Below are positions 17,171-34,561 of a DNA stretch of 64,000 bases, one piece after another. The notes below the pieces were generated by a model. It saw nothing but the letters and a program-made list of their open reading frames with translations, ran no database searches and had not been told where the DNA came from. Made by a program: the position numbers and the translations under genes. The stretch comes from Candidatus Poribacteria bacterium (GTDB lineage Bacteria > Poribacteria > WGA-4E > PCPOR2b). How positions within the stretch are numbered: the stretch's first letter is position 1; each line of letters opens with the position of its first letter. Location of the stretch: assembly GCA_965116925.1 (NCBI GenBank), contig OZ220744.1, positions 5,931,757-5,995,756 on the forward strand, read 5' to 3'.

Positions 17171-17252
17171 AGTTCATATCAAAAGAAAGTGCAAAATGCG
17201 AAGAGAAACCGAGTTTTTTCTTCAAAACTCGGTTTCTTTGCACTATTCCTTA
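17171..17252. repeat. REP-like element family A, long form
   Basis: Hairpin GAAACCGAGTTTTTTCTTCAAAACTCGGTTTC at 17205-17236. Lies between the lipoprotein gene and the CRISPR trailer. Confidence 0.75.
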
Positions 17253-17509: not shown

Positions 17510-20500
17510 CTTGCAGTCTCCTTTTCATCTGGTCAAGGATTGTAACTCTGGTGCTGATAATGATGCTCCTGTTGATGCTTACTTTCAGTCCCCTTTTCAT
17601 CGGGGCAAGGATTGTAACGATTGTGCACCGACTGCGGGAAACACGCCCCAACGCACTTTCAGTCCCCTTTTCATCGGGGCAAGGGTTGTAACCTATCCCC
17701 CTCAATTCTTCGGGAGGCACGGCTGGGCTTTCAGTCCCCTTTTCATCGGGGCAAGGGTTGTAACATTGAAAGGTTACGTGGGACACTGGCACGTGATGAA
17801 CTTTCAGTCCCCTTTTCATCGGGGCAAGGGTTGTAACATATACATCTTCTAATCGTAAGAATTTCGAGTTTACCTTTCAGTCCCCTTTTCATCGGGGCAA
17901 GGGTTGTAACATTGAAAGGTTACGTGGGACACTGGCACGTGATGAACTTTCAGTCCCCTTTTCATCGGGGCAAGGATTGTAACCAAGTCCTCAATCTTCT
18001 TCAGGTGGATTATTGCGTTTGCTTTCAGTCCCCTTTTCATCGGGGCAAGGATTGTAACTAGGTTCTATATTCCCCACAGGTGAGACGATTCAACCCTTTC
18101 AGTCCCCTTTTCATCGGGGCAAGGATTGTAACACGCACGCTGCCACTCATCAGCTCATGGTGCATCCCCTTTCAGTCCCCTTTTCATCAGGGCAAGGATT
18201 GTAACGCCGATTTTGGCACGGATCAACGCAAAATCGCCTCCTTTCAGTCCCCTTTTCATCGGGGCAAGGATTGTAACCATCGTTGGGCGTGGTATAATCG
18301 ACTACAGTTTGCATCTTTCAGTCCCCTTTTCATCGGGGCAAGGATTGTAACGCCGATTTTGGCACGGATCAACGCAAAATCGCCTCCTTTCAGTCCCCTT
18401 TTCATCGGGGCAAGGATTGTAACGCCTCACGAATAAAGAAACCTGTCTTTGCTGTGTTCTTTCAGTCCCCTTTTCATCGGGGCAAGGATTGTAACACGCG
18501 CAGACGGGACACCGCGCCGGGTACTGTTGACTGCTTTCAGTCCCCTTTTCATCGGGGCAAGGATTGTAACCTTCACAAGAGACCTTGTGATAGCCGATGA
18601 AGACCTTTCAGTCCCCTTTTCATCGGGGCAAGGATTGTAACCGGAGTCCCCCATCGTCTATCCCCCAACGGCTTCGCTTTCAGTCCCCTTTTCATCGGGG
18701 CAAGGATTGTAACCATGATGATGGCGATTGCATTTCTCACGCAATGCCTGACTTTCAGTCCCCTTTTCATCGGGGCAAGGATTGTAACCATTTAAGCGGA
18801 AATGTCACTACACGCCCTTTTCACCTTTCAGTCCCCTTTTCATCGGGGCAAGGATTGTAACCCTTGACATCGTTTTCCGTAGGCTGCATCAGGATTCTTT
18901 CAGTCCCCTTTTCATCGGGGCAAGGATTGTAACAAGAAGTCTCTATCCTTGACCGTCCCCGTATCGTTGCTTTCAGTCCCCTTTTCATCGGGGCAAGGAT
19001 TGTAACATCATACAGATACATATCTCCCCCAGCCCGTTTACTTTCAGTCCCCTTTTCATCGGGGCAAGGATTGTAACCTCACTCAATGCCGGACGGGTGG
19101 CCGTCTCAAGAGCATTCTTTCAGTCCCCTTTTCATCGGGGCAAGGATTGTAACAAGGCTACCGAGAATCCGACCCGACGATGAGGTGATGCTTTCAGTCC
19201 CCTTTTCATCGGGGCAAGGATTGTAACCTGCAACGCTGCAACGTAAAGTTGACAGTTTGGAACTTTCAGTCCCCTTTTCATCGGGGCAAGGATTGTAACC
19301 ATGCGATGGGCAGGGCTGATACCCCTGTTGCGTGGTCTTTCAGTCCCCTTTTCATCGGGGCAAGGATTGTAACACCAACGATTCAGTGGAACGCCACTGG
19401 ATAGCGTTCTTTCAGTCCCCTTTTCATCGGGGCAAGGATTGTAACACAGCTACATCACCAGCAGCAGTATTATTACAGATGCCTTTCAGTCCCCTTTTCA
19501 TCGGGGCAAGGATTGTAACGACAAATATAAAACCCAAAGGGTAAAGGGCCGTTAGTCTTTCAGTCCCCTTTTCATCGGGGCAAGGATTGTAACGACACCA
19601 GTAAACAAGCGGAGGCATTCCCGGACTATTCTTTCAGTCCCCTTTTCATCGGGGCAAGGATTGTAACGACAACATCGCAGCAGGCAAAAAGTTTGTGCTG
19701 GACTTTCAGTCCCCTTTTCATCGGGGCAAGGATTGTAACTACACCAGTCTATCGGCAGTACAACTTCAAAGGGACTTTCAGTCCCCTTTTCATCGGGGCA
19801 AGGATTGTAACTGATAGATTTTGAAATAGGTAGGCGCGACTGCACGGTCTTTCAGTCCCCTTTTCATCGGGGCAAGGATTGTAACCAAGCCAATCTACAA
19901 GCACATTGACCATTTACAAGCTTTCAGTCCCCTTTTCATCGGGGCAAGGATTGTAACGCAGCTAGGGAAAACTATGACGGCTTTGTGTTTGCTCTTTCAG
20001 TCCCCTTTTCATCGGGGCAAGGATTGTAACGTCATTTGCGGAGATTGTGAATTTGACCGGGAACCAGCTTTCAGTCCCCTTTTCATCGGGGCAAGGATTG
20101 TAACGACCATTAGGGGTGTCCTTCTCTTTCATGATGTATGCTTTCAGTCCCCTTTTCATCGGGGCAAGGATTGTAACCTTGAAACTACAGTTGAGATGGT
20201 TTCTCCTTGCCTGCCTTTCAGTCCCCTTTTCATCGGGGCAAGGATTGTAACCTATTCTCCTTCCTCGCTGGTGTCCTCTACGGTGCTTTCAGTCCCCTTT
20301 TCATCGGGGCAAGGATTGTAACGTTTCTGATTAAGCGGGTGGTGTGCCCTGTTTTGCCTTTCAGTCCCCTTTTCATCGGGGCAAGGATTGTAACTGTGTA
20401 ACTTCTGGTCCGAGCGGTGGCATCTCGATCACTCTTTCAGTCCCCTTTTCATCGGGGCAAGGATTGTAACAGTATTAGATCCTATAACAGGTGCTGTGAT

Positions 20501-21873
20501 AATTGCTTTCAGTCCCCTTTTCATCGGGGCAAGGATTGTAACAGAGTTTAGCGAATAGCGTTATTAACCCCAAAGTGCCTTTCAGTCCCCTTTTCATCGG
20601 GGCAAGGATTGTAACCTATAAATACCGCCCGCAACATTATATCTATCACCACCCTTTCAGTCCCCTTTTCATCGGGGCAAGGATTGTAACATAACTTATT
20701 CGCAGATAATCAACGATAGATCAGGCTTTCAGTCCCCTTTTCATCGGGGCAAGGATTGTAACCAGCGAACAGCAGTAGAAACACATCTAACAGGCGGTCT
20801 TTCAGTCCCCTTTTCATCGGGGCAAGGATTGTAACTACGGAAGCAAAGAAGTATATCGGCTTGGATGAAGCTTTCAGTCCCCTTTTCATCGGGGCAAGGA
20901 TTGTAACTGCTTGGACGTAACTTGGACGGGACGGCGGTGGGATCTTTCAGTCCCCTTTTCATCGGGGCAAGGATTGTAACCTTTTGGACGGCAGATGCGA
21001 CGCTGCCGTACACAAGCTTTCAGTCCCCTTTTCATCGGGGCAAGGATTGTAACCAGCAGGGCGTGTGTTGTATGAGCCATTCGAGTTCTTTCTTTCAGTC
21101 CCCTTTTCATCGGGGCAAGGATTGTAACCACCGTGATTAGTCTGAATCCTCTACCGTATCAAACAGCTTTCAGTCCCCTTTTCATCGGGGCAAGGATTGT
21201 AACTATCAATATCATGGTGTTTTCTCCCGTCTTGGTATCCTTTCAGTCCCCTTTTCATCGGGGCAAGGATTGTAACGTCAAATGTTCCGAACATACGCAT
21301 AGCAGATATTGATCTTTCAGTCCCCTTTTCATCGGGGCAAGGATTGTAACTGAGCCGTCCGTCGGGGGACACTACCTGCCTAAGACTGCTTTCAGTCCCC
21401 TTTTCATCGGGGCAAGGATTGTAACCAACAATTCGACTTTAGAGGTGAACGCTCGGAACAGTCTTTCAGTCCCCTTTTCATCGGGGCAAGGATTGTAACA
21501 TGGGTAGTGGCACGACGGCTGTGGCTGCTAAGGAATTCTTTCAGTCCCCTTTTCATCGGGGCAAGGATTGTAACACATGAACAGACAAGCGCAGCAGCAG
21601 CCACACTCGCATCTTTCAGTCCCCTTTTCATCGGGGCAAGGATTGTAACCGCTCCGATGGATACAGGATACGGGCAGAGGTGGACTTTCAGTCCCCTTTT
21701 CATCGGGGCAAGGATTGTAACACGGGCGGGCTGTGGATTGGGCTAAATGACCTGTGGGCATCTTTCAGTCCCCTTTTCATCGGGGCAAGGATTGTAACAT
21801 AATATGTATTACAAAGGCAAAGCACTAAAACGTAGGCTTTCAGTCCCCTTTTCATCGGGGCAAGGATTGTAAC
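17510..21873 (-). CRISPR. CRISPR array, 60 repeats / 59 spacers, 37-bp repeat CTTTCAGTCCCCTTTTCATCGGGGCAAGGATTGTAAC (+ strand as given; crRNA likely from - strand: GTTACAATCCTTGCCCCGATGAAAAGGGGACTGAAAG)
   Basis: Repeat starts: 17510 (degenerate, 4 mismatches), 17582, 17656, 17728, 17801, 17874, 17947, 18022 ... 21762, 21837. Spacers 34-40 bp. Repeats at 17656-17910 carry a GGGTTGTAAC variant and 18169 carries CAGGGC. Degenerate repeat at the low-coordinate end and AT-rich leader plus cas genes at the high end give a minus-strand orientation. Confidence 0.97.
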
Positions 21874-22274
21874 CGACTATGGGCAGCACTCATAAATCGC
21901 TCCAAAATATAGAAAATATCTATGTTTTTGAAGCATTCTCTGTATCATGGCATGAAACGCCTCTGTGTTCAAGAAAAAAGTGTATATCTTCAGCGTGTCT
22001 TGTGTTCATCAGTATCGGTGGGATTCGGATCGTTATTTTCGCAAATCCCCGTTGTCAGTGTCATGCTATCTGTTTGGCTATGGAGACCAGAGACAGTCAG
22101 TCGCAAATCGATCTTCCTACAGATTTGGGTAGGTACAAGACCTACCCCTACAGTCTTCGTTTTGATTAAGACGGTGTAAACTCTGCTTTGAGTAGGCACA
22201 AAGCCTGACCCTACAGTATCTTCTTTTTCGCAAATTGCCCCGTCTTTTCCGCAGAAACTTGGTTTGCGAAATTC
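21874..22274 (-). promoter_or_regulatory. CRISPR leader (AT-rich, between cas4 stop and first repeat)
   Basis: About 400 bp of AT-rich non-coding sequence abutting the newest-end repeat (21837-21873). Contains two roughly 30-bp imperfect direct repeats (22125-22155, 22180-22212). Confidence 0.7.
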
Positions 22275-22847
22275 TCATAATACATCGGCACAGAATCGAC
22301 GAAATTCACACTCGACGCATTTGCCGCGCTGTGGTGTCGGTGGAGGCATCCACTCCTCTGATAGCATACGCCGTATCTGTTTGATAGCGTCGAGAGTCCT
22401 GCGCCTAAGTGTCTCTGAAATCGGAACTGGTGTGATGCGCCCTGTAGGGATCCGATAGATGAACCCTTGAGACACCGATTGACCGAGACACTCCTCCACC
22501 ATCAGCGCGTAGGCTGTCAACTGATACTTCGCGTTCAGATTCAACCGTTGGGTCGTGTCCTTAAACTCGACTGGAAACGCGCCATCTTCGGTCTCAATAA
22601 GCAGGTCGAGCACACCGCTCAGTCCGAGGGACTCGGCGTATAGTGAGATGTGGAACTGACGGCTACCAGCCTCCAGTCCGTAGCGGGAGAGGGTTCGCCG
22701 TCGCTCTAAGACGCTTAGGATTTCGTGTTGGACCGCGCCGATTTGCATCGGGTGCGTCGTTGGGCGGGTCACGGGGGTGTAGTAGGTGTGGTAGACCACC
22801 CGTGGACAGTAGAAGTATTGTTTGATGTCGCTGACCCGTATGTTCAT
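22275..22847 (-). CDS. cas4: Cas4 (RecB-like nuclease with C-terminal 4-Cys Fe-S cluster)
   Basis: N-terminal YFYCPRVVY. C-terminal CVECEFRRFC. Start overlaps the cas2 stop by 4 bp. Confidence 0.85.
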   Translation of the reverse strand: MNIRVSDIKQYFYCPRVVYHTYYTPVTRPTTHPMQIGAVQHEILSVLERRRTLSRYGLEAGSRQFHISLYAESLGLSGVLDLLIETEDGAFPVEFKDTTQRLNLNAKYQLTAYALMVEECLGQSVSQGFIYRIPTGRITPVPISETLRRRTLDAIKQIRRMLSEEWMPPPTPQRGKCVECEFRRFCADVL

Positions 22848-23095
22848 TTTCCATTCTCCTCAATGACGGTTCGTTTGTCGTAGTCTTTTGCACACACGCT
22901 AAGGATCTCGATCTTCCCTTCCGCTTTGCCGAGTTGTTCGGTCAGTTTCTCCTCCAATGCGCGCCGCCGGGTTGTGTTGATGTCACCGAGGAATGCGCTG
23001 TACTGGATGCGTTTTAAGCCGTAGTCGAGGCAGACATCGGCAATCTTTTTGCGGATGCGGTCTTTCACGATGTCGTAGATGACGTAGGTGTGCAT
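22844..23095 (-). CDS. cas2: Cas2
   Basis: 83 aa. MHTYVIYDIVKDRIRKKIADVCLDYGLKRIQYSAF is typical Cas2 (VapD-like fold, conserved Asp near the N-terminus). Confidence 0.85.
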   Translation of the reverse strand: MHTYVIYDIVKDRIRKKIADVCLDYGLKRIQYSAFLGDINTTRRRALEEKLTEQLGKAEGKIEILSVCAKDYDKRTVIEENGK

Positions 23096-23102
23096 GAATT
23101 AT

Positions 23103-23134
23103 AGAAACCGAGTTTTTTCTTGAAAACTCGGTTT
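23103..23134. repeat. REP-like hairpin family A (3' flank of RAYT gene)
   Basis: GAAACCGAGTTTTTTCTTGAAAACTCGGTTTC between the cas2 start and the transposase stop. Confidence 0.8.
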
Positions 23135-23143
23135 CTCTGTCCC

Positions 23144-23710
23144 CTAATCTAACATCAAGTGCTCTATAAACTCCCTATTGGTCTCAGAATACGCACAGAC
23201 GAATTTAGTATAAGCTTGGCGCGAAGGAAGTTGAGACAGTACGATATCAGGTTTGGATAAAGTTCCGTTACGCAAACCGATGTAGTCCTGATAGCTAGAA
23301 AATGTCCAACTTTCTGGATTACTGGCTATCCCCGCCAATACTGGATTTAGGTGAATATAGCGTGAAAGATGTAGAAGATATTCGTTTTTGTCTACTAACT
23401 TTGCCTTAAAGACACCTTGGAAAACTGGTCCCACGCGGTCTTGTTGCCGATTCACAGCTTTGGTGTAGGATACGGTGAATGGTTGCATAATTTTCGTGCT
23501 CAGGTTGTCATCTTTCAGGTAAGCGAGAATGTGGTAATGATTCGGCATAAGACAATAGGCGACAATTTCAATTAAATCAGGAAGGCAGTAGTGGCGTAAG
23601 CGTTTTATAAAGTATCCCCAGTTTTCCTTATCAAAGAAGATGGGTTGACGGTTTACGCCGCGGTTGTATAAATGGTAATAATGTCCTGCTCTAAATTGAA
23701 CGTCTCGCAT
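23144..23710 (-). CDS. Y1 HUH transposase, IS200-like / REP-associated tyrosine transposase (RAYT)-like
   Basis: HUH motif LMPNHYHIL. C-terminal Tyr motif RYIHLNPV. 188 aa, longer than IS200 TnpA. Flanked on both sides by family A hairpins. Confidence 0.75.
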   Translation of the reverse strand: MRDVQFRAGHYYHLYNRGVNRQPIFFDKENWGYFIKRLRHYCLPDLIEIVAYCLMPNHYHILAYLKDDNLSTKIMQPFTVSYTKAVNRQQDRVGPVFQGVFKAKLVDKNEYLLHLSRYIHLNPVLAGIASNPESWTFSSYQDYIGLRNGTLSKPDIVLSQLPSRQAYTKFVCAYSETNREFIEHLMLD

Positions 23711-23932
23711 CTATGGTGTCTCCCAGAAACCGAGTTTTTTCTTCAAAACTCGGTTTCTATCGGTTTCTAAATGTGTTGTACCTTAAATCGGTAATTTGGT
23801 ATCTATGGTGCGTCCGAGAAACTGCTCGCCTGCAACCTTCCACACACGCTCCCATGAAAATTGGGAGTTTCGTATCTATGACGTGTCCAAGAAACTAAGT
23901 TTTGAAGAAAAAACTGAGTTTCTAAACTTTTT
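23711..23932. repeat. REP cluster upstream of RAYT gene: 3 x roughly 80-bp direct repeats each ending in a family A hairpin
   Basis: TATCTATGGTGYSTCCSAGAAAC repeated at 23709, 23790 and 23866. Hairpins at 23726-23757 and 23891-23922. Confidence 0.7.
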
Positions 23933-25040
23933 ACCATGTGGCGGTGAAGGGGTGATAGTCTCGTTCGCGGCGTAGGTGCATGGCGAGGTGACGCGCTTGG
24001 AGCTGGATGATGTTGCAGAGTTTTTGCGCTTTTCGCTCGAATCGTTCGGTTTCTTGAAGTCTCGCCAGTACGCGATCGGCAAGGGCGCGTCGGGTCGCTT
24101 GGCTGAGGCGGCGTTGTGTTGGGGTTTCGGTCTCCGCATCGGGTTTCGAGGATTGGTGCACGGCTTTGGCGGCGTCGCTGTCGGGGTCTTCCCACTCGAC
24201 TTTGAATCGTTTGTTGATCATCGCGAACACGACCCGATCCACGACGGGTTGGCGGAACTCTTCGATGAAGTCTAGCACCAGTGAGGGTTTGCCGGGGCGA
24301 TCGACGTGCAGGAATCCGGCAAACGGTTCTAGCCCTGCCAGTGTGAGCGCGCTCCAGACTTGTGAGTAGAGTATGCCGTAGCCGTAGTTGAGCAGTGCGT
24401 TCACGTCGTCGGTTGCGCCTTGATGGTTGCGAGTGGTGAAGCGTCCGGCGGGCAGCAGGCGTTGGACGCATTCCCAGTAGAGGGCACCGGCGCGTCCTTC
24501 AAGGTTCAGTAGTGTGCTACGTGCATTGTCGATTGGCGGTTCGCTGACTGCAGCAACGGTTGGGGATTGAACGTCCTGGATTTCGTCAATCAGTCCTTCG
24601 ATCTTTGTGAGTCGTTCCATCAGTTCGGCGTATTTTTTGGGTGCCTGTTTTTTGCGGTATTTGCCGAAGTAGCGAACGAGGTTGATCTGGTTCTTCAGCT
24701 TGCCAGTAGCAAACTGTTTGGCGATCTCTAGGCCGCGCTCGTCGTGGTAGGCGGCGAGTTGTTCGCGCCTTGAGATCACGGTCGCTGTCAGGGACGGGCT
24801 GTTGAGTTTCGCATACGGTTTGCCGTTGAAGCTGAGGAATGCGATTTCGATGCCGCGCTCGGTACAGGCTTCAATGAGATCTGAGGACATGCTGACGCCA
24901 CGTGAGGTGATGACGATTTGATCGAGGTCCATCAGGGGGTGTTCCTCTTTTTCGCGGTCTTTGTCTCGGTATCGGACGCTGACGCGCTCGGAGCGTTTGC
25001 CGAGGTATGTGCCGTAGTCGGAGATGATGAGTTGTTCCAT
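23931..25040 (-). CDS. cas1: Cas1 integrase
   Basis: MEQLIISDYGTYLGKRSERVSV is a typical Cas1 N-terminus. Conserved acidic and His residues present. SD-like AAGGAAA upstream of the 25040 ATG. The ORF opens at 25094. Confidence 0.85.
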   Translation of the reverse strand: MEQLIISDYGTYLGKRSERVSVRYRDKDREKEEHPLMDLDQIVITSRGVSMSSDLIEACTERGIEIAFLSFNGKPYAKLNSPSLTATVISRREQLAAYHDERGLEIAKQFATGKLKNQINLVRYFGKYRKKQAPKKYAELMERLTKIEGLIDEIQDVQSPTVAAVSEPPIDNARSTLLNLEGRAGALYWECVQRLLPAGRFTTRNHQGATDDVNALLNYGYGILYSQVWSALTLAGLEPFAGFLHVDRPGKPSLVLDFIEEFRQPVVDRVVFAMINKRFKVEWEDPDSDAAKAVHQSSKPDAETETPTQRRLSQATRRALADRVLARLQETERFERKAQKLCNIIQLQARHLAMHLRRERDYHPFTATW

Positions 25041-25343
25041 TTTTCTGTTTCCTTTCGATCCGCTGCTTGCGTCGGTCTTGAATTTCGGGTACACTTTAAT
25101 AACCTAATAGGACTTACGCAGTTGATATAAATATCGCCGCTGCCTTCGTGGCGCGGTGCCTGCTCTTGAAGAAATTGGGGGTTCCCAGTCTGCAATAGTG
25201 GGTACAGGTTGCCTAACCTGTACGGGGTGTGCGATGTTTGCCAGCGAAGTGCGTAACTCCTACCTAAGTTGCTATTCGTTGAAAGTCCACCGTTTTTTAT
25301 CAGGGCAGAACCTCCCCGACCATCTGGTAGGTCCTTTGTCTTT

Positions 25344-25409
25344 CGCTCCAGAGGAGCGATATGTCTATAGAACCACAATAGGGTGGATACCCGCGCTCCA
25401 GAGGAGCGC
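25344..25409. repeat. palindromic repeat family D (CGCTCCAGAGGAGCG x2)
   Basis: Two tandem units (25344-25358, 25393-25409). Inverted copy at 55743-55807. Confidence 0.65.
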
Positions 25410-25565
25410 AATGTGTATAGCCAGGGCCAAGCTGCCGATAAATTGAAGTCCTAAGAACGGATTGGCGAAGTCGGAGCCGAGCGGGTTTTATAACTAGCAA
25501 CTTGCGTTTTAACAAGGAACGCAGATCTGCGTTCCCTACCCCCGGTTGTAAGCGATTATGGGAGA

Positions 25566-25865
25566 TTGACTCAGGTGGTTCTTATGTGCCAACGTTGCAA
25601 TACCTACAAATATCTTGAGCCCCGCCCAAAGAACTGGCGAAACCAGCTCTGGATTAAGGGCAGAAATATGACGGTTTGGCATCTGATCGCTGCGATGCGT
25701 ACTGAACATGAGACGCTTGAACAAACCGCTGAAAACTTTGGTTTGCCGCTGGAGGCTGTCGTCGAAGCGATGCACTACTATGCACTTCACAAGGATATTG
25801 TCGAAGCGGATGTTGAAGCGGAGAAGCAGATCCTCGTTGAAGAATTCAGAGTTGCCTATTGTTAG
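25566..25865 (+). CDS. DUF433-like small protein (HTH-like fold, often TA-associated), antisense to the cas operon
   Basis: NQLWIKGRNMTVWHLIAAMRTEHETLEQTAENFGLPLEAVVEAMHYY fits the DUF433 consensus (K/R-G-T/N-R-I/M-xV...G...E..A..Y). Real start may be the internal M at 25584. Confidence 0.5.
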   Translation: MTQVVLMCQRCNTYKYLEPRPKNWRNQLWIKGRNMTVWHLIAAMRTEHETLEQTAENFGLPLEAVVEAMHYYALHKDIVEADVEAEKQILVEEFRVAYC

Positions 25866-25908
25866 CGAAAATTAACTCCTTAGCCAGTCCCTTTAACAAT
25901 GGTGGATA

Positions 25909-28266
25909 TTAATCAAATGTCAATCCCACCTCCGAGTTATATTTGGCGGTAACGCGATAAGGTTCTCGTCCATTTCTCAGAATTTGGTCACTGTTTTTGA
26001 GTGCGTGAAACCTTCCCCAACTGATTGGGACTAACAGTTCTCCGGCGCGAATTGGTTCTTCCTCGTTCAGAGTTTTGTATTCATTATAGAGAGAAGCCGG
26101 TAGGACCTCAAGTCCATCAAACGCCCTGTAAAATGCTTCCTCAAGTCCCTCGTCTGCTGCAAAAGGACGCATTGGTCGTATGCACATTCTATCAAAGTTT
26201 GCGGCGGCGTTTTCGTATTTCTCCCGCCAACGAACTTCAACTTCGCCACTGTAGATTTCATCCAACCAAGCACCGATACTGCCCTCATCAATTGGCTGTT
26301 CATGTTCGCGTTCAAGAATAGAAAGGGTGCGTTGTACCAGTTCGGGATCATAAATCTTTTGTCCATCGTCAGGTTGACGAAAGACATGAACAGGCGCGAG
26401 ACCTTTCTGTAGTCTACGACGGTTGATACGACCAAAACGTTGTACTAGTGCCTCCAGCGGTGCCGGCTCTGTGTAGATTGTATCCAAATCAATATCAAGA
26501 CTGACCTCAACCGCCTGTGTTGCAACGAGGACAATAGGTTGACGTTTCTCGCTCGTTGCTCCCGTTGCATCCCGAATCAGTTTTTCTTTCGCAGAACGGT
26601 CACGCATATTGAAACGACCGTGTAAAAGTTCCGTTCGGATATTCACCTGATTCAGTTGGTCACTAATTTGGTTATATGCTTCTTGTGTGCGATCAACGAG
26701 ATTGCACACAACCAACACCGATTTTCCCGCCTCTGCGTCGTTGACCACATTTGACAACCCGGAATCAGTCAATAATTCGCCGTCGTGCAGCATCAGTCGA
26801 TGACGGATAAATTCTTGGAACAACGCTGAATCAGCTTCAATTTTAGCTGGGGTGTCTAAGGCTTCAGATAACCAACCTTGAATCAGCGTTGGGAAGGTTG
26901 CTGACATGATGAAGAAACGGGCGTTGAAATTCACTCTCAGGTACTCGATGGTTTTGAGGATCATCGCCAATCGCGTGACTTCGTAGGCGTGAATCTCGTC
27001 AAATATAAACGCCGCATTATGATAATCGGTGAGCAACGCCTCGTAACCTTTGAGGCGATACATCCCTTTAAGCATTTGATACGGACTAAATACACGGACC
27101 GGCGGATAATTAAGCCGTGATAGATTCCGCGCCCATGTTGCGGTACGAGCTGCTGCTCTTGGATGATAATCTCTTTCTAAGAGAGCCCGATAAAGTGCTA
27201 GCAGACCACGGCCATGTTGCAAACCAACGTGTGGGAAGATTTCTTCTAGGCGACCTTGCATTGCATTCATACTGGCTTGATAGGGGAGTGTATAAAAGAG
27301 TCGAGGCAATCCACCGACACTTGATGACTGGCGTGCTGCCCACAGTAGAGCGGCTTCTGTTTTCCCACTACCGGTTGGTGCTACTAAGAGTGCTGAACCA
27401 TCAACTGTTTCGGCTAGTGATTGGTGTCCAAAGAGACTTTCCGTCGATAGGTTACGGCTTGTTAAAATCGTATCTGCGTCAAACTCGGCAACCGGTATCG
27501 GTCCAGCGTGAGCGGAGGCACTGTGGTCTGCATTGATGATATAGCCGCGAACAGTGATTCCTAGCACGATTGCATCAAGTGTGCCTCTCCTCTCTAAATT
27601 TCGGTTGAGTGTCCGGTAAACCTTCAGCCAGTGCCGGGTTCGTTCAACGCCGTATTGTTGGACAGCTTCAATCGCGATATGCTTCTCTTGCAGCTGAGGC
27701 GTTGAGATGCCAAAATTTGCTAACCCAAGTTCATCCCGCCACGCGATACCACATTCTGACAACCAACGCCACAATCCGCCCAAGGTTTTCTCTGAGAGGG
27801 AGGCAAGTTGAGGTCTCAAAGGGTCATCGTCCTCCCAATCAGGGATAGGGTAAATTCGCTGAATTTCCTCGAAATCTCGATGGTGTGAGACAATGCTGGC
27901 AACAAGCCATCGCTGCTCTTCCGTTGACAGATCATCAATCACCCAATCCACAAACGCAAGCGAAAACACTTCGTGACGGTGCCCCCATCCTCCCCCATTA
28001 CAACGGAGTTGCATTTGAAAGCCTGCTATTGCCTTGCCAAAATCGTGAAGGAATGCTGACCAGAAAAGGATGTGCCATAAACGTGGTACGTTGAGTTGCG
28101 TTGGAAGATTGGGGCGTAATTGGATGAATTCTGCCAATCGTGATAACACATACCATGTGTGCTGGGCTAATGTTTCCGGTTGACCGCCTTCACCCAATTC
28201 CGCACTTTTTGCCCACACATTGTTTAACCAATCGGGATATGGGACGTTTTCAATTGAAGGTTGCAT
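25909..28266 (-). CDS. cas3: Cas3 (N-terminal HD nuclease + DExH helicase)
   Basis: HD motif (FLHDFGKA). Walker A LLVAPTGSGKTEAALLWA. DExH box FIFDEIHAYE. Helicase C-terminal region. GGGAGA SD before the ATG at 28266. The ORF opens at 28359. Confidence 0.9.
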   Translation of the reverse strand: MQPSIENVPYPDWLNNVWAKSAELGEGGQPETLAQHTWYVLSRLAEFIQLRPNLPTQLNVPRLWHILFWSAFLHDFGKAIAGFQMQLRCNGGGWGHRHEVFSLAFVDWVIDDLSTEEQRWLVASIVSHHRDFEEIQRIYPIPDWEDDDPLRPQLASLSEKTLGGLWRWLSECGIAWRDELGLANFGISTPQLQEKHIAIEAVQQYGVERTRHWLKVYRTLNRNLERRGTLDAIVLGITVRGYIINADHSASAHAGPIPVAEFDADTILTSRNLSTESLFGHQSLAETVDGSALLVAPTGSGKTEAALLWAARQSSSVGGLPRLFYTLPYQASMNAMQGRLEEIFPHVGLQHGRGLLALYRALLERDYHPRAAARTATWARNLSRLNYPPVRVFSPYQMLKGMYRLKGYEALLTDYHNAAFIFDEIHAYEVTRLAMILKTIEYLRVNFNARFFIMSATFPTLIQGWLSEALDTPAKIEADSALFQEFIRHRLMLHDGELLTDSGLSNVVNDAEAGKSVLVVCNLVDRTQEAYNQISDQLNQVNIRTELLHGRFNMRDRSAKEKLIRDATGATSEKRQPIVLVATQAVEVSLDIDLDTIYTEPAPLEALVQRFGRINRRRLQKGLAPVHVFRQPDDGQKIYDPELVQRTLSILEREHEQPIDEGSIGAWLDEIYSGEVEVRWREKYENAAANFDRMCIRPMRPFAADEGLEEAFYRAFDGLEVLPASLYNEYKTLNEEEPIRAGELLVPISWGRFHALKNSDQILRNGREPYRVTAKYNSEVGLTFD

Positions 28267-28975
28267 CGTTATCTCCCACAAAGCTATGGAAAACCAAACC
28301 GAGATAGTTGCCTTGATATTCAGGCGTTGAAAGGTCAATCCAATATTTGCCCTTCCCATTTGAAAGGGAAACTCGATCGGTGAGTACCGTGTACTGTGAA
28401 AATGTTGGACGTCGGTTTTGACTGTAATCCAAATAGCGAGGCATTAGAACCGATACACCGCGCCCAATTCGGGGCCCCATCTCATGCGGCATAATCGTAT
28501 GTTCAAAGTAGGCAGCCTCGTTCTGCTGCAATTCAATAACGTTGACTGCTGTGTAGGTGAACAGGTCCTGCGATCTGCCCAACGAAACCGCATAGCGCGG
28601 ACTTCGGAATGCTGACTCCCATTCCGGACGGTTGATGTAGAGCGTGAGACGCGGCTGAAAGATTAACTCCCGTTCAAAGGGATTCACCCTGCCCTCAAGT
28701 GCGTTAGGAATTTGAGTGCCCGGCAACTTGCTACGGCTAGAACTGGATGGCGTCAATACAATGATGTGTTCAATATCCCGAACGTGCCCTTGATGGGTGA
28801 AATGGTAAGCGAATTGAACCCCACTTGGATCGAACCATTCCCCCAACGCACTACAGATATGCCCGTAAATGGTTGCCGGGGGCGGCATCTGAAAGCTGGG
28901 GTGAATCTGTTGCATAAAGTGAGGATAGCGGAAAGAAGTGGTAAGTCCTTCCGCAACGACTTTGAGGACTTTCAT
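28250..28975 (-). CDS. cas5: Cas5
   Basis: MKVLKVVAEGLTTSFRYPHF...PPPATIYGHICSALG is the Cas5 N-terminal pattern. GGGAGG lies 5 nt before the ATG at 28975. The ORF opens at 29053 but that extension runs through a REP hairpin. Confidence 0.8.
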   Translation of the reverse strand: MKVLKVVAEGLTTSFRYPHFMQQIHPSFQMPPPATIYGHICSALGEWFDPSGVQFAYHFTHQGHVRDIEHIIVLTPSSSSRSKLPGTQIPNALEGRVNPFERELIFQPRLTLYINRPEWESAFRSPRYAVSLGRSQDLFTYTAVNVIELQQNEAAYFEHTIMPHEMGPRIGRGVSVLMPRYLDYSQNRRPTFSQYTVLTDRVSLSNGKGKYWIDLSTPEYQGNYLGLVFHSFVGDNDATFN

Positions 28976-28999
28976 AGAGACCTCCCAATTTAAGGATGA

Positions 29000-29030
29000 G
29001 AAACCGAGCTTTTCCAAAAAACTCGGTTTC
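29000..29030. repeat. REP-like hairpin family A in the 65-bp cas7-cas5 intergenic spacer
   Basis: GAGAAACCGAGCTTTTCCAAAAAACTCGGTTTC. Confidence 0.8.
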
Positions 29031-29040
29031 TTCTCCGTTA

Positions 29041-30129
29041 TCAATCCAACCAATTCGCATTTTCTGATTTTTGTAAATCTTCAGCGAAAGCCTTAAATGC
29101 GTCCCGTGGATGATTTACCCTTATGTTTGCCCCACAACTTGCCAAACCGGGGGGATCGCTTAATGCCTCCTCAAACTTAGCTCGTTCTTGGTCGAGATAA
29201 CCTTTAGTCCAACCGACATAAATATCCGAGAGAATATCGTCCTTGAAAACCGTCAGTGTCTCGGCAAGTGCATCAATCTTCAGCTCCGGTTCATCCCGCT
29301 GATTTGGTCCGATGACATGACCGAAAATGTGATTGCCTCCTTTGGTCACCGCCAAGATTGTCAACGCCGGACTCACATCTGTGTAATGTAGCGATTGTTT
29401 CGCGCCACCTTCGAGGTGTGCGAGTCCGTCCAAAAGCGTACTGATACGTTGAACGCGTGCTTCGTATGGGAGTCGGTAGGATTTTTCATCTTCGAGGTGT
29501 TCAAGATCCTGTGTTTGTGCCAGTCCAATCCGCACGTCATCAAGGTTTCGGTAGCCTGTTTTATTTCGGTAGGAGAATGTGCCCACGGCATGTAAATCGA
29601 GCGATAGAAGCCCTTTGAGGGTTGCACGATAGAATTGGTGTTCATGAGGTACAGGGTCACCTTCATGACGTGACATTGTGCCAAAATCCTCGGTAACATT
29701 TGTTGGCGCGATGGAAACCAATGTACTCACGCGAAATGGCGATACACGAGTAACCGTATCCGTGGTTTCAGTTTCGTTTGCCCGCGATTCATCTGCTTCC
29801 CGCTTCTCTTTAGCAGATGTCCTTTTAGACGGCGCACGCATATAACCGAAAAGATCGTCGTCCCACCACTCAATTGGATTGGCGTCGGTATAAGCAACTT
29901 TTTCCTCTCGGTAGATTGGAGCGGGAGCCCAACCTTGTCCACCATTTTCAAGGGTTGTACGCAGCCAATAACGAAATGACTGCGCTGATACATAGGGATA
30001 AGCACCCTGCTTCGTGCGAATCATCTTGACTCCCACGGTGTTATCGGTGCGAGCACCAGGAATGCTTCCGAGATTATTAAGTGCAGATGCCGGTGCATCA
30101 ATAAGCATCAAACCTGTTGCAAATGCCAT
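29041..30129 (-). CDS. cas7: Cas7 (type I backbone subunit)
   Basis: IDAPASALNNLGSIPGARTDN...YVSAQSFRYWLRTTL is the Cas7/DevR-Csa2-type signature (ALN + S-x-Q/G-S-x-R). 362 aa. Confidence 0.8.
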   Translation of the reverse strand: MAFATGLMLIDAPASALNNLGSIPGARTDNTVGVKMIRTKQGAYPYVSAQSFRYWLRTTLENGGQGWAPAPIYREEKVAYTDANPIEWWDDDLFGYMRAPSKRTSAKEKREADESRANETETTDTVTRVSPFRVSTLVSIAPTNVTEDFGTMSRHEGDPVPHEHQFYRATLKGLLSLDLHAVGTFSYRNKTGYRNLDDVRIGLAQTQDLEHLEDEKSYRLPYEARVQRISTLLDGLAHLEGGAKQSLHYTDVSPALTILAVTKGGNHIFGHVIGPNQRDEPELKIDALAETLTVFKDDILSDIYVGWTKGYLDQERAKFEEALSDPPGLASCGANIRVNHPRDAFKAFAEDLQKSENANWLD

Positions 30130-30162
30130 GATATAAACCTCCTTGCAATTTGTGATAATTCG

Positions 30163-30528
30163 TTAGCTGTTTTCATCCTCGTTCTCTTGAGCGGTTTCTT
30201 CAACCAGATCAGGATTTTCGCCCAACCAGCCTTTCTCATGTAACTGTTCAACCATCCGGATGAACACCAAGTCACGCGCCAGCCACCAGTCTGGACGTTC
30301 TAATCCGTACCCCTCTTCAAAAACTTCAATATATGGGTCAAGTTTGATAATCGGTGGATTACCACGGTTGACATGCTCCAGATTGGCACGGATTAGTAAT
30401 CTACGTACGTCACTGGACCTACGTTGATGAAAAAAATCACGGAAGAAACGACGATCATTCTGACTACTGACATAATTCGCCAGTTGGTCGCCCATCTTGC
30501 GAATCTCCTCAATTCGTTCCTTTTCCAT
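30163..30528 (-). CDS. cas11: putative Cas11 small subunit from internal in-frame start within cas8
   Basis: In-frame ATG (MEKERIEE...) 121 codons before the cas8 stop. Preceded by UUUUUUAAGGAGGGuauuucacAUG, a canonical SD 9 nt upstream. Confidence 0.45.
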   Translation of the reverse strand: MEKERIEEIRKMGDQLANYVSSQNDRRFFRDFFHQRRSSDVRRLLIRANLEHVNRGNPPIIKLDPYIEVFEEGYGLERPDWWLARDLVFIRMVEQLHEKGWLGENPDLVEETAQENEDENS

Positions 30529-31659
30529 GTGAAATACCCTCCTTAAAAAAGATGCGATGATATTCCATGACACCAAATTCATCTCGTGTGTTAGTCCGTA
30601 GTTTCCCCGTGGGTCACCTTGGTTGACGCGACCGTAGCGGGACCGGCGACGCAAAAAGTAGGTCCGTAAAAATGCCTTTGCTCTGTCCGGCAAAAGAAAC
30701 AAACCATCGTACAATCCTAAGACATCTTCATAAAGCCAATTTCGACGCGGTTGGAATGGCTTATTATCTTTTTTTCGTTTATTTTGGGGTTCAGTCTCCC
30801 ATGCACGATTGACGATTCCATTCCATTGTGTACGGTAATCTGCGCTCTGCATTTCACGCAGAAATCCAATAATTTGAAGCGGTAAGTGATAGATGTCCAA
30901 ACCGACGCCCTGCCCGCTGTTTGTCAGGTGATATGCTGTGAGTGAGAAAGGCTCCTCATCTTGAAGCTCCTCCCGCTGTCTAATATCACCTTGAAGGAGT
31001 GTGTTAATTAGCAGTGTGCCGCGAGAGTTATGTGGTTCCTCTATTTTCTTGCTGCCTGCTGCTTGGGCGAGAGCAATTGCTCTCTGATTTCCTTCTAGAA
31101 ACGATCGGGCAAAATATAGCATAAGGTCTGGATTATCTGAATGCACCGCAAGCAGGCGTCCTGCGGACTTTGCACATCCAAGTGGAAATGCCTGAATAGC
31201 GAGCAGTGCTTCACCTGAAACGGGTAAGCCTGCCTCACCATAGGCGTGGAAGTTGATAACATTTTCACCGGTGAGCAGTGGGATGTGTTGGCGAAAAGCG
31301 CGTCCCTGTGGCAGGGTCTCTTTTTCTCCAAATGCGATATTAACGGCTGGCTTGCCTGTGAAAACACACACCTCATCATCAAGCAGGGGGGTATCATCGC
31401 TATAATTCCGCAGTACACGGGTTGCATACGCTGAACGCTTTTCGGGCGTTTTATTGTATGCTGGTTGCGTAAAGCCTGAATTTGGAAAAGCGACTGTCAA
31501 AAACGACTTGAGTGGGTCTCGGACGTATTCACGAGTGATATAGTCCGCAACTTCGTCAAGGTCAGTTTCTGTCAATTCATCAGGGTTTCGCTTGTCCACA
31601 AAAGCGGTAATTGTTGCAATTCCCACATCAACAAGTGGGTGTCCTGTGTATTTGAGCAT
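30163..31659 (-). CDS. cas8: Cas8 large subunit (I-B-like Cas8b candidate)
   Basis: 498 aa between cas6 and cas7, the position of the type I large subunit. No HD or polymerase motifs. N-terminal MLKYTGHPLVDVG. Family assignment is by size and position. Confidence 0.65.
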   Translation of the reverse strand: MLKYTGHPLVDVGIATITAFVDKRNPDELTETDLDEVADYITREYVRDPLKSFLTVAFPNSGFTQPAYNKTPEKRSAYATRVLRNYSDDTPLLDDEVCVFTGKPAVNIAFGEKETLPQGRAFRQHIPLLTGENVINFHAYGEAGLPVSGEALLAIQAFPLGCAKSAGRLLAVHSDNPDLMLYFARSFLEGNQRAIALAQAAGSKKIEEPHNSRGTLLINTLLQGDIRQREELQDEEPFSLTAYHLTNSGQGVGLDIYHLPLQIIGFLREMQSADYRTQWNGIVNRAWETEPQNKRKKDNKPFQPRRNWLYEDVLGLYDGLFLLPDRAKAFLRTYFLRRRSRYGRVNQGDPRGNYGLTHEMNLVSWNIIASFLRRVFHMEKERIEEIRKMGDQLANYVSSQNDRRFFRDFFHQRRSSDVRRLLIRANLEHVNRGNPPIIKLDPYIEVFEEGYGLERPDWWLARDLVFIRMVEQLHEKGWLGENPDLVEETAQENEDENS

Positions 31660-31947
31660 TCTACTTTAGTCTCCTTTCTTTTAAAACGGTAATTATATCC
31701 CCGATTCCCGTCAGAACATGTCGGTGATCGGAAAATAGTGTAATTTTTTAAGGATCTACCACATTTTTTTTTTCCTTCTCTTATCCATTCGATACTTCCC
31801 CAGGTCAAATGTTATCAGCCTAAACACTGTAGGCAACGATTTTCTTACATTGCAAAACGGCACCAATTCTAATAAAATAGATACGTGACGATATGGGACA
31901 CTATATTTTATAGCTGCCTATCCAATATCAGAGGAGTGTACCGTCCT

Positions 31948-32193
31948 ATGAAAGTGATCGAGTATATCGCAGAAGTATTACCCAACGGTTCTCTCGCACT
32001 GCCTGACGACATCCGAAAAGCGTTGGGATCGCAAACGCAAGTCAAAGTGACGTTAGCAGTGGAAACACCTTCGACCCCTGACCTCCAGAAGGGTTGGCAA
32101 ATTTTCAAAGATCTTGGAAAAGATGCGGTTGCTGGGAAGCTGTCCAACACTTCGATAAATCATGACGAATACCTCTACGGTACACGGAAATGA
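31948..32193 (+). CDS. DUF104-like antitoxin-family small protein, antisense between cas8 and cas6
   Basis: MKVIEYIAEVLPNGSLALPDDIRKALGSQTQVKVTLAVE fits the DUF104 pattern (M..i.a.yenGvl.P.e.l.l.eg..v.v.i). The ORF opens at 31885. No adjacent toxin gene. Confidence 0.4.
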   Translation: MKVIEYIAEVLPNGSLALPDDIRKALGSQTQVKVTLAVETPSTPDLQKGWQIFKDLGKDAVAGKLSNTSINHDEYLYGTRK

Positions 32194-32263
32194 GCACCTC
32201 CTCTTTATAGGTCGGGTTTTCATACTCGATACCTATCAGAAATAACCCAATAAACGACACACA

Positions 32264-32331
32264 TGTCGCCCCTCTGGGGCTTTAGGATATGGAATTTCGG
32301 AATTGCTATACACATATCGCCCCGCTGGGGC
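32264..32331. repeat. palindromic repeat family E (TGTCGCCCCKCTGGGGC) x2 in the cas8-cas6 gap
   Basis: 32264-32280 and 32316-32331. Related copies at 34613-34679 and (reverse complement) 59894-59967. Confidence 0.65.
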
Positions 32332-32480
32332 TTTGGAGGCGGAGCAAGTTGAAAATCCCGATCGTATCGGGGATACCCGACCTACGCATATCGGGAGTTG
32401 ACTTTTATCACGCTGCACGTAACTAGCAGCTTACGTTAAAATAGCGATCACAAGGGTTGTCCTTACCTTATCTCTAGGCT

Positions 32481-33419
32481 TTATTCAATCCGATATTTCC
32501 CCAACCCAAACGTTGCGTTTTTGCCGACGTGCAGAAACCTGCCCAACGCCGCGAATGGCATGAACGCCGCCAAATCGCCGTTATAGGTTACACACCCAAC
32601 CAGTCCTCCGAGCTGCATCTTCTGATTCTGTCGTGAGGAGTAGCGTGTCCAGTCCTTCCATCGCAGGCTGCTCTGGACGGTTTGGATCGTTTCCGCCTGT
32701 GCGATGAGTCCCTTGAAATCGAGATCCAACGATTCGCCACAGTGGAAATATGCCAACGCCGAGATTCGCCCGATCAGTCGTCGCCAGAAGAGGTGGAACG
32801 GGAGTTGATCCGTTATTTGCCCCTTATGTGTGATCCGCGTGGGGGTGAGCAGGTGCACGGTCAACTGGTCGGTCGGTAGTGATGCTGCTTCGCCCTGAAT
32901 CTCGTCGAAGCTGAGTGTGTTATTAAGGTTCTGTATCATCTGGGTTTCGCCATCGTAGACTGATTCGCCGTCCTCGGTCTGGACGTGGGTCAGTTGGAAC
33001 CGTCCGCGTCCCTTGCCGATGCCGATCTCGCCTAGTTCGCGGAAGCTAACCAGAAAATAGGGGAGGTAGTCGATGGCGCGTCCGATCAGGGTCAGACGGA
33101 ACACAAACGATTCTCCTCGCCGGTATTCGCCTCGTGTACTTAGGGGGTCGATCACGAAGGGTCTAGGCACGTCCCCATACGTCCTTAATTGTTGCGCGCC
33201 CTCGAATGGGGCGGTCTCGAAGATGTAGGGGTATGGGCACACGGCTTTGAGTGTGCAATCTCGGCAGTCAATTGGTCCTTGGGTACAGACCATCTTTCGG
33301 AAGGCGTGTCCGAATCCGCCGCGGAGTGTGGAACCGGCGTAGGGTGGCATCACAATTTTTGAGAGCGCGGTTAGGATTATATGGTAGCGTGCGATTCGGA
33401 AGTTCTGTAGTGGGTTCAT
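32481..33419 (-). CDS. cas6: Cas6 pre-crRNA endoribonuclease
   Basis: C-terminal glycine-rich loop GKNATFGLGKYRIE. N-terminal Cys cluster (CTQGPIDCRDCTLKAVC). 312 aa RAMP-like protein. Confidence 0.75.
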   Translation of the reverse strand: MNPLQNFRIARYHIILTALSKIVMPPYAGSTLRGGFGHAFRKMVCTQGPIDCRDCTLKAVCPYPYIFETAPFEGAQQLRTYGDVPRPFVIDPLSTRGEYRRGESFVFRLTLIGRAIDYLPYFLVSFRELGEIGIGKGRGRFQLTHVQTEDGESVYDGETQMIQNLNNTLSFDEIQGEAASLPTDQLTVHLLTPTRITHKGQITDQLPFHLFWRRLIGRISALAYFHCGESLDLDFKGLIAQAETIQTVQSSLRWKDWTRYSSRQNQKMQLGGLVGCVTYNGDLAAFMPFAALGRFLHVGKNATFGLGKYRIE

Positions 33420-33487
33420 TGGTGTTTCCTTTTCTCATATAGCCCGCTTTTCATCGCGGTATGTAAGGGATGATGAGGAAAGCCTCA

Positions 33488-33537
33488 GAAACCGAGTTTT
33501 TCGGAAATGGGCGGGGAAACCCCGCCCCTACGGTTTC
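33488..33537. repeat. compound REP: family A stem enclosing a family C GC hairpin (GGGCGGGGAAACCCCGCCC)
   Basis: AGAAACCGAGTTTTTCGGAAATGGGCGGGGAAACCCCGCCCCTACGGTTTCT between the WYL gene and cas6. Confidence 0.7.
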
Positions 33538-33589
33538 TGGGTATAATCGGGAGTCATTATACCATCCGAGAGTGCAATATATACGCACT

Positions 33590-34561
33590 TTACTTTTTAT
33601 TGTAAATTTGCTGCATTTTTTTAATTTCCGCCTTGATCTCATGGCGGAGGCTTTCGGGTTCAACGACTTCTGCATGTGATCCGTAGCCCATCACCCACCG
33701 CTTCACTTCGCCCAACCCACCGACTCTCAGACGGAGTATCAGTTCACCGGAAGGCAGCTCCTCGATCTGTTGGCTGGGGTGCCATTCGCGTTCCCTGATC
33801 CAGCGTGCCTGATATTCGTCAAATTTGATGACGATATTTTCGGGTTCTGTCGCCCGTTCAGCGAGAAACCCAGCCTCTAAGTAGGCATTGAGTGAAAAAT
33901 CCGGGGGGACTTGGAAAGAGGATAGTAGGTGTTTATACGCTTTGATGCGGCTGGTGAGAAAGTCCCGGGGTTCGCGTCGGGTATGACAATAGGCGATTAA
34001 ATACCAATCACCCTGAATGTTATGGAGATGGTATGGATCAACAATGCGTGTGCTTGTTTGACCGCTACTCGCTGAATAGTACTCTATTTCAATTGAGTAT
34101 CTTGAAAGGATAGCCTCGTTGAGTTCAAGCAGTAATTCTGGATCAACTATCGCTCTGCCGCCGCCTGTGAAGGTAAACGCAGCGGTTTTCCTTTGTGCAT
34201 CGTAGCTTACACTCTCTGGCAGATGTTGTTTTATCTTATCGAGTGCGAGTCGAAGCGGCGTTTCAAAAGGAGTGCCCAGATACCGTCTAAATAATTCTTC
34301 TCCCAGAAAAAAAGCGGTAATTTCTTCGCTTGTCAGCATTATTGCAGGAAGGAAATAGGTGGGATCCGTGTAGTACCAACCGTTTCTGGTTCTGTCATAT
34401 TTGATAGGCGCGCCAAAGCGGTTTATCAGAAATTTCCTATCTTCGTAGGCGATTCGGGTGCTGCGGAGTTCAAAGTGTGCCTGGACTGTATGGGCGTTTG
34501 GATACCTTTCTCTTTGAATCTGATCATCAATCCAGTAAATTCTTTCCAGCTTGGTAGACAT
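33590..34561 (-). CDS. WYL-domain transcriptional regulator (wHTH + WYL + C-terminal WCX), CRISPR-associated by position
   Basis: N-terminal HTH (LERIYWIDDQIQRERYPNAHTVQAHFELSTRIAYEDRKFL). WYL region (IEIEYYSASSGQTSTRIVDPYHLHNIQGDWYLIAYCHTRREPRDF). Directly upstream of cas6 on the same strand. Confidence 0.75.
   Translation of the reverse strand: MSTKLERIYWIDDQIQRERYPNAHTVQAHFELRSTRIAYEDRKFLINRFGAPIKYDRTRNGWYYTDPTYFLPAIMLTSEEITAFFLGEELFRRYLGTPFETPLRLALDKIKQHLPESVSYDAQRKTAAFTFTGGGRAIVDPELLLELNEAILSRYSIEIEYYSASSGQTSTRIVDPYHLHNIQGDWYLIAYCHTRREPRDFLTSRIKAYKHLLSSFQVPPDFSLNAYLEAGFLAERATEPENIVIKFDEYQARWIREREWHPSQQIEELPSGELILRLRVGGLGEVKRWVMGYGSHAEVVEPESLRHEIKAEIKKMQQIYNKK

Follow-up and report, generated by a model that had tools for sequence, protein, structure and literature searches.

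The chromosome of the sponge symbiont Candidatus Poribacteria carries a full type I-B CRISPR-Cas locus on the minus strand at positions 17510-34561 of the 64-kb stretch of DNA that we analysed as a whole and refer to as the window. Read along that strand, the locus runs WYL regulator, cas6, cas8b, cas7, cas5, cas3, cas1, a Y1 transposase gene, cas2, cas4, leader and array. All ten genes, the cas genes among them, are intact open reading frames (ORFs), and every long ORF at 22275-34561 lies on the minus strand. We consider it highly probable that this is a complete type I-B system with a gene order typical of its lineage, in which the transposase, a REP-associated tyrosine transposase (RAYT), is embedded as a long-resident passenger. 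An earlier interpretation of this DNA from its letters alone, which we call the sequence-only reading, had delimited the same interval with the same gene content, except that the WYL gene at 33590-34561 went unmentioned.

Gene identities were taken from NCBIfam, Pfam and PADLOC profiles, and the start codons of cas5, cas3 and cas1 are those of the public gene calls for the same contig. Cas6, the pre-crRNA (precursor CRISPR RNA) endoribonuclease (32481-33419), matches the PADLOC Cas6 profile PDLC01477 over its full length (E = 4e-110) as well as Pfam CRISPR_Cas6. The large subunit (30163-31659) had been described as a Cas8 with no recognisable motifs, which is wrong: it is a Cst1-type Cas8b that matches PADLOC Cas8b PDLC01387 over residues 1-492 (E = 1e-195), scores 39.9 bits against a cut-off of 19.4 with TIGR01908 (Cas8b1/Cst1), and shares 44% identity along its whole length with Herpetosiphon aurantiacus Haur_5076, an annotated Cst1. 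Cas7 (29041-30129) is of the Cst2/DevR type (TIGR02585, 185 bits against a cut-off of 72.75; PADLOC Cas7b, E = 4e-55) and Cas5 (28250-28975) of the Cas5t/Cas5b type (TIGR01895, 104.2 bits against a cut-off of 96.7; PADLOC Cas5b, E = 5e-55). Cas3 (25909-28266) is a single ORF in which an N-terminal HD nuclease (cas3_HD, residues 64-283, 76 bits) is fused to the helicase (cas3_core, residues 324-683, 236 bits), and its best PADLOC match is Cas3b (E = 1e-189).

The only models that score for Cas8, Cas7 and Cas5 are I-B or generic type I ones; no I-C, I-D or I-G effector profile, a match to which would have told against the assignment, scores for any of the three. Cas3, Cas1, Cas2 and Cas4 also match models of other subtypes, more weakly; I-B models rank first for Cas1, Cas2 and Cas3, and for Cas4 the top match is a type II Cas4 profile in PADLOC. 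Because Cas8b, Cas7 and Cas5 score above the curated I-B cut-offs and the best Cas3 match is Cas3b, subtype I-B is firmly supported by the profile evidence, and the features by which membership is recognised are present: a Cas8b large subunit, I-B-type Cas7 and Cas5, an HD-helicase Cas3, a stand-alone Cas6, and cas1, cas2 and cas4 beside the array. The sequence-only reading was therefore right in its subtype call, and also in its effector order of cas6-cas8-cas7-cas5-cas3 with the HD domain N-terminal, but not in suggesting a divergent I-B variant, since existing I-B profiles accommodate the whole length of the effector proteins.

Relatives of the locus were gathered by a scan seeded with Cas1, at one genome per species, which returned 23 loci from Poribacteria metagenome-assembled genomes (Cas1 82-96% identical to that of the window) and one unrelated match. 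These sister loci, cited by L numbers, were compared with the window by tblastn using its ten proteins. The closest, L011, shares 96% Cas1 identity and has 56 repeats but no RAYT. Cas6 is 78-92% identical in the sister loci regardless of their effector type. The WYL/WCX protein that opens the locus (Pfam WYL, E = 4e-21, and WCX, E = 8e-23; PADLOC CRISPR-associated WYL, E = 4e-40) is a putative transcriptional regulator of it, and its gene is found in the same place in L022, L025, L029 and L031.

The adaptation genes follow cas3 in the order cas1 (23931-25040; TIGR00287, 242 bits; PADLOC Cas1b, E = 5e-89), cas2 (22844-23095; TIGR01573, 51.5 bits; PADLOC Cas2b, E = 3e-26) and cas4 (22275-22847; TIGR00372, 125.6 bits; PADLOC Cas4, E = 1e-41), the last encoding a PD-(D/E)XK nuclease with a C-terminal Cys cluster. 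The textbook order is cas4-cas1-cas2. Every Poribacteria locus that reaches past cas1 nevertheless has cas1-cas2-cas4 (21 of 21), as do the closest Cas4 relatives on annotated plasmids, those of Herpetosiphon aurantiacus and Deinococcus gobiensis; in Rubrobacter radiotolerans, cas2-cas4 is visible at the start of its record. Given this distribution, the non-canonical order is a trait, and the ancestral arrangement, of an adaptation-module lineage that spans several phyla, and not as a peculiarity of the window locus. The succession cas1-(transposase)-cas2-cas4-leader-array had thus been read correctly, and only its supposed oddity falls away. In one sister locus (L030, 10001-11130), the match to cas1 is split into two overlapping pieces (residues 1-177 and 154-369), which suggests a frameshift or an internal duplication.

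The nearest described architecture is that of Herpetosiphon aurantiacus plasmid pHAU01 (Haur_5075-5083), a Cst1/Cst2(DevR)/Cas5t I-B locus that runs regulator-Cst1-DevR-Cas5-Cas3-Cas6-like-Cas1-Cas2-Cas4-array. Beyond the Cst1 match, the two share a DevR-type Cas7, a Cas5, an HD-helicase Cas3, a long Cas6 (33% identity), an upstream regulator and the cas1-cas2-cas4 genes followed by the array. They differ in that cas6 is the first gene in Poribacteria and lies between cas3 and cas1 in Herpetosiphon, that a RAYT gene with REP hairpins splits cas1 from cas2 in the window, and that the window has small opposite-strand genes in the cas6/cas8 and cas3/cas1 gaps. The ORF in the former gap (31948-32193, plus strand) has no family match, and the one in the latter (25566-25865, plus strand) has a weak match to DUF433 (antitoxin-like) below the cut-off. 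The cas3/cas1 junction of the relatives L002, L115 and L125 holds DUF5615 or BrnT/BrnA toxin-antitoxin pairs. Type II-B systems also order their adaptation genes cas1-cas2-cas4, and the likeness extends to the best PADLOC match of the window Cas4 and to the type II Cas1 model, which ranks third among Cas1 matches; the window, however, has neither cas9 nor tracrRNA, and its effector is a class 1 Cascade with Cas3.

Between cas1 and cas2, at 23144-23710 on the minus strand, lies the gene for a RAYT-like Y1 (HUH) transposase of 188 residues (Pfam Y1_Tnp, 34.7 bits against a cut-off of 23). His58, Tyr59, His60 and Tyr118 are invariant in 16 homologues. A profile of this 16-member family has one relevant match in the PDB, E. 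coli TnpA-REP (4ER8, E = 1.2e-4), in which PEHMH and YIYINP align with the HUH and YIHLNP motifs of the family; phmmer with the single window protein against PDB sequences gave no match. The gene is bracketed by two REP hairpins, one directly upstream (23726-23757, folding at -17.6 kcal/mol, z = -6.8) and one directly downstream (23104-23135), 8 nt before the cas2 ATG. Every RAYT-bearing locus likewise has one REP hairpin on either side of its RAYT. Related hairpins lie just past the cas1 stop codon (23891-23922), inverted with respect to the copy at 23726-23757, and in the cas7/cas5 gap (29000-29030); the first of these sites is also occupied in the RAYT-less locus L002.

The palindrome, GAAACCGAGTTTT-N6-AAAACTCGGTTTC, forms a perfect 13-bp stem with a 6-nt loop. 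The window contains it seven times as an exact pattern match, compared with none in 100 shuffles, and nine times when small deviations are admitted. These nine copies of about 32 nt each, starting at 9826, 17205, 23104, 23726, 23891, 29000, 34926, 36580 and 48966, are all intergenic. The bracketing hairpins together with the dispersed copies are the signature of a RAYT with its REP family, and the sequence features thus identify what had been called simply a transposase in the cas1/cas2 gap, correctly so far as it went, more specifically as a RAYT. The copies at 17205, beyond the far end of the array, and 34926, upstream of the WYL gene, bracket the entire CRISPR-Cas locus. A promoter-like hexamer pair in the REP before cas2 (23126-23098) was rejected as a candidate: its -10 element stops 2 nt short of the ATG, and such matches are not more frequent than in shuffles. 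In the RAYT-less cas1/cas2 gap of L002 (20350-20480), a run of CATTACG/CATTACT heptamers follows the REP hairpin.

The window element thus resembles RAYT/REP (REPIN) systems such as that of E. coli TnpA-REP in its HUH motif, its catalytic Tyr in a YIHxNP-like motif, the REP bracketing of its gene and the dispersed intergenic REPs, although similarity to the E. coli protein is remote (E = 1e-4 for the family profile). It departs from REPIN systems in that its family lies within operons, co-oriented with them and separated by gaps of about 30-70 nt; in Poribacteria the operon is a cas operon.

We found the RAYT at the cas1/cas2 junction in 12 loci: the window, L014, L016, L017, L025, L026, L029, L030, L031, L032 and the metagenomic contigs L115 and L125. 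Two others, L022 and L126, have it between the WYL gene and cas6 instead. The window and each 21-kb RAYT-bearing locus hold a single copy. Twelve loci lack the gene; four of them (L011, L015, L020 and L027) have a cas1/cas2 gap of 9-32 nt without a hairpin, and in the remaining eight the gap is 80-290 nt with 0-2 REP hairpins. Pairwise identities, taken from multiple alignments, correlate between RAYT and Cas1 (r = 0.81), Cas2 (r = 0.93) and Cas4 (r = 0.81), compared with r = 0.94 between Cas1 and Cas4. The RAYT is under purifying selection, with dN/dS of 0.07-0.12 against 0.03-0.12 for the Cas proteins at comparable dS. In a neighbour-joining tree of Cas1, Cas2 and Cas4, RAYT-bearing loci fall in both deep clades, interleaved with RAYT-less ones. 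This pattern is most simply explained by a single old insertion that was then inherited along with the locus, shifted locally in one sub-lineage and was lost several times. The RAYT would then have entered the cas1/cas2 junction before the sampled Poribacteria species diverged, and would have been inherited with the locus and lost repeatedly, being unneeded for CRISPR function. It points the same way as the operon, from which it is probably expressed; we identified no separate promoter for it.

A metagenome scan with the RAYT gave only homologues of 41-66% identity, which served as a background rate: none of these 80 has cas1, cas2 or cas4 within 4 kb. Those with 66-76% identity are flanked by unrelated genes, the pairs being ABC transporter genes; a caspase-nSTAND gene with an ATPase; an SNF2/PLD helicase with an MmeI-type methyltransferase; an unknown gene with a Wzy-type gene; and a lipid kinase gene with plsY. 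In these unrelated operons the RAYT is co-oriented with its neighbours across gaps of about 30-70 nt, with 184 nt in one case. The family habitually embeds in operons, and in Poribacteria the operon happens to be cas. The homologues from outside Poribacteria (L003, L005-L010, L116-L124 and L127) invariably lie between two genes of what looks like an operon and in the same orientation as these, and two of these contexts look defence-like, the caspase-nSTAND/ATPase and the SNF2/PLD helicase/methyltransferase pairs. Our literature search returned no report that connects RAYTs with cas operons or sets out the cas architecture of Poribacteria; one sponge paper that names both terms concerns a different organism.

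Several points weigh against reading the locus as a complete system with a passenger RAYT. The protein scores 71.5 bits (E = 6e-20) with the NCBIfam model REP_Tyr_transpos (NF047646), under its curated cut-off of 80. Its long residence under selection in a cas operon shows more persistence than one would expect of a random passenger, and it occurs at two different junctions of the locus and together with all five effector cassettes that the sister loci carry (below). Searched against 50,697 phage records (blastn, word size 11, E ≤ 0.1), the 57 unique spacers of the array gave no match, and 26-28-nt cores of four spacers, the two newest and the two duplicated, had no exact match in IMG/VR. Finally, we infer the crRNA processing site, promoter use and current activity, as we do the passenger status of the RAYT.

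One alternative is that the RAYT and its hairpins are a functional part of the locus, with the HUH nuclease feeding, cutting or joining single-stranded DNA in prespacer generation, or with RAYT and hairpins together driving exchange of effector cassettes at the module junctions. The RAYT keeps the same junction in 12 loci, with two further copies elsewhere in the same locus; its divergence parallels that of Cas1, Cas2 and Cas4, and it is under strong purifying selection (dN/dS about 0.1), shares the orientation of the operon with no promoter of its own identified, and stays linked to the adaptation genes whichever effector cassette is present. Yet about half of the sister loci, the closest (L011) included, do without it, and the arrays of these RAYT-less loci are large and completely turned over. 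Among the roughly 670 spacers of 20 sister arrays not one is shared, so that arrays evidently turn over with or without a RAYT. The absence of cas neighbours from all 80 of the more distant homologues and the placement of the closer ones inside unrelated operons also argue against a CRISPR role, while REP flanks with dispersed REP copies are ordinary RAYT behaviour and purifying selection is to be expected of any domesticated RAYT; a passage of PMC5581495 characterises RAYTs as domesticated and present in single copy. On balance the case for a functional role is weaker than the case against it, and we regard such a role as improbable. We therefore read the RAYT as a long-resident passenger of unusual persistence.

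The array itself (17510-21873, minus strand) comprises 60 repeats of 37 nt and 59 spacers of 34-40 nt, called concordantly by Tandem Repeats Finder, a repeat finder and a fuzzy regular expression. The repeat reads CTTTCAGTCCCCTTTTCATCGGGGCAAGGATTGTAAC on the plus strand and GTTACAATCCTTGCCCCGATGAAAAGGGGACTGAAAG on the minus strand. Strand, repeat count and repeat 3' end agree with the sequence-only reading, but its description of the array as large does not carry over to the lineage, where 60 repeats are unremarkable: the L026 array has at least 110. Sister arrays always lie 3' of cas4. The terminal repeat at 17510 is degenerate, with 4 mismatches; repeats 3-6 share one A>G change and repeat 10 has one G>A. 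Repeat degeneration is confined to the array end far from cas4. Numbered from the 17510 end, spacer 4 equals spacer 6 (17765-17800 and 17911-17946) and spacer 10 equals spacer 12 (18206-18240 and 18352-18386), an A-B-A pattern that occurs twice and leaves 57 of the 59 spacers unique. Within-array duplicates are common in the lineage (the window and the L026, L011, L014 and L030 arrays), and in L026 a block of 24 repeat-spacer units is duplicated; the pattern suggests recombination between repeats. Allowing up to 7 mismatches, no spacer matches the window outside the array, so the 64 kb contain no self-target.

Between cas4 and the array lies a leader of 401 nt (21874-22274, minus strand), for which an alignment of 17 leaders reveals a conserved promoter-like site and two GATTTGCGA motifs. 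The promoter-like site is a -35/-10-like pair, TTGAAC-N18-ATGATA (21972-21942), that ends 68 nt before repeat 1 and is conserved across the 17 loci. Two direct repeats of 31 nt each, at 22124-22154 and 22187-22217, are 81% alike and 63 nt apart; each contains a small palindrome, GGGTAGGT..ACCTACCC, and could be a candidate protein-binding site. Across loci the 3' half of the CRISPR repeat, CCCGATNAAAAGGGGACTGAAAG, is near-invariant and the 5' third variable. Folding predicts a 4-bp stem in the repeat, which ends in an 8-nt 3' end (...GAAAG); L018 and L028 have CCGC/GCGG in place of CCCC/GGGG, a compensatory change that supports this stem.

From these features of array, leader and repeat, and by analogy with known type I-B systems, a promoter in the conserved leader would transcribe the array on the minus strand, and Cas6 would cut each repeat at the 3' base of the CCCC/GGGG stem to leave the 8-nt 5' handle ACUGAAAG. 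By family membership, Cas8b, Cas7 and Cas5 would assemble on the crRNA as a Cascade complex, Cas3 would degrade matched DNA with its HD nuclease and helicase, Cas1, Cas2 and Cas4 would insert new spacers at the leader end, and the upstream WYL/WCX protein probably regulates transcription. Spacer turnover and the intact cas ORFs suggest that the system has been active over evolutionary time.

The locus might instead be decaying or silenced, with the REP-RAYT-REP insertion polar on cas2 and cas4, adaptation switched off and the array a fossil. The hairpin of 13-15 bp that stands 8 nt before the cas2 ATG, where a ribosome-binding site is not obvious, would fit such a history, as would the lack of spacer matches in the databases searched and the two duplicated spacers. 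That hairpin, however, lacks a following T-run and so does not qualify as an intrinsic terminator; none of the ten genes is broken; in RAYT-bearing lineages the dN/dS of Cas2 and Cas4 is 0.04-0.12; and RAYT-bearing arrays are as long as RAYT-less ones, with spacers unshared. Decay is accordingly very unlikely in our estimate, and a complete system carrying a passenger RAYT remains the preferred reading.

At Rfam gathering thresholds the whole window has no match to CRISPR-DR or any other family, and it contains no tRNA genes. Two short tandem repeats unrelated to the locus lie at 6427-6574 (65-nt unit, 2.3 copies) and 54921-55168 (102-nt unit, 2.4 copies).

Comparison with the sister genomes also produced a by-product that is more interesting than the locus itself. 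The sister loci keep the cas6, cas1-cas2-cas4, leader and repeat 3' half of the window, and the block from cas6 to cas1 (25041-32480 in the window) differs. We set L011, L013, L014, L016-L021, L024, L026, L028, L030 and L115 against this block of the window. Five cassettes occur between cas6 and cas1: two of subtype I-B, two of I-D and one I-A-like. The I-B cassette of the window recurs in L012, L022, L025, L027, L029 and L031 (by tblastn), and a second I-B cassette with a different Cas8b profile is found in L017 (by PADLOC). One I-D cassette, with Cas3', Cas3'', a Cas10d-Cas11d fusion, Csc2 and Cas5d, was assigned by PADLOC in L011 and by two of four tblastn markers and a weak Pfam Csc2 match in L115; the other, with Cas10d, a separate Cas11d, Cas7d, Cas5d and Cas3d, was assigned by PADLOC in L026 and by ORF sizes alone in L014, L019, L020, L024 and L030. 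The I-A-like cassette of Cas3, Cas8a, Cas7 and Cas5a was assigned by PADLOC in L013 and by ORF sizes alone in L016, L018 and L028. Because the RAYT occurs with all five types, it travels with the adaptation genes and not with the effector.

In blastn against L011, homology to the window runs through cas6 (33458-32478, 88%), breaks, resumes exactly at the cas1 start (25040-23911, 92%) and continues through cas2, cas4 and the array, with a further stretch in the far flank (17148-15774, 91%). L013 and L014 have the same downstream flank as the window. It follows from this shared flank that the cassettes of L011 (I-D), L014 (I-D) and L013 (I-A-like) were exchanged in place, at the same chromosomal site. 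The sister I-D and I-A-like loci thus resemble the window in Cas6 (at the identity given above), adaptation genes, leader and repeat 3' half, and in L011, L013 and L014 in the flank too, and differ in carrying Cas3'/Cas3''/Cas10d/Csc2/Csc1, Cas10d/Cas11d/Cas7d/Cas5d/Cas3d or Cas3/Cas8a/Cas7/Cas5a in place of the I-B effector genes.

Such exchange among sisters explains the cyanobacterial look of the repeat, which might otherwise suggest that the effector module of the window is I-D or a hybrid; I-D cassettes are indeed present in sister loci whose cas6, repeat and adaptation genes are the same, but the window has no Cas10d, Csc1 or Csc2 and no counterpart of the I-D proteins of L011, its Cas8b, Cas7 and Cas5 match I-B or generic type I profiles alone, and its Cas3 fits Cas3b best with I-D and other subtype models much weaker, so that this alternative is already refuted here and we give it practically no weight.

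The locus adds one more I-B system from an uncultivated phylum of sponge symbionts. Its RAYT, a transposase of domesticated type that persists in a CRISPR adaptation operon across species, provides a natural presence/absence series for the question of spacer uptake. The wider significance lies in the cassettes: these genomes present a natural case of effector-module exchange, in which at least five cassettes of three subtypes stand behind one Cas6, one repeat and one Cas1-Cas2-Cas4 module, and this implies that a single crRNA design serves different Cascade types.

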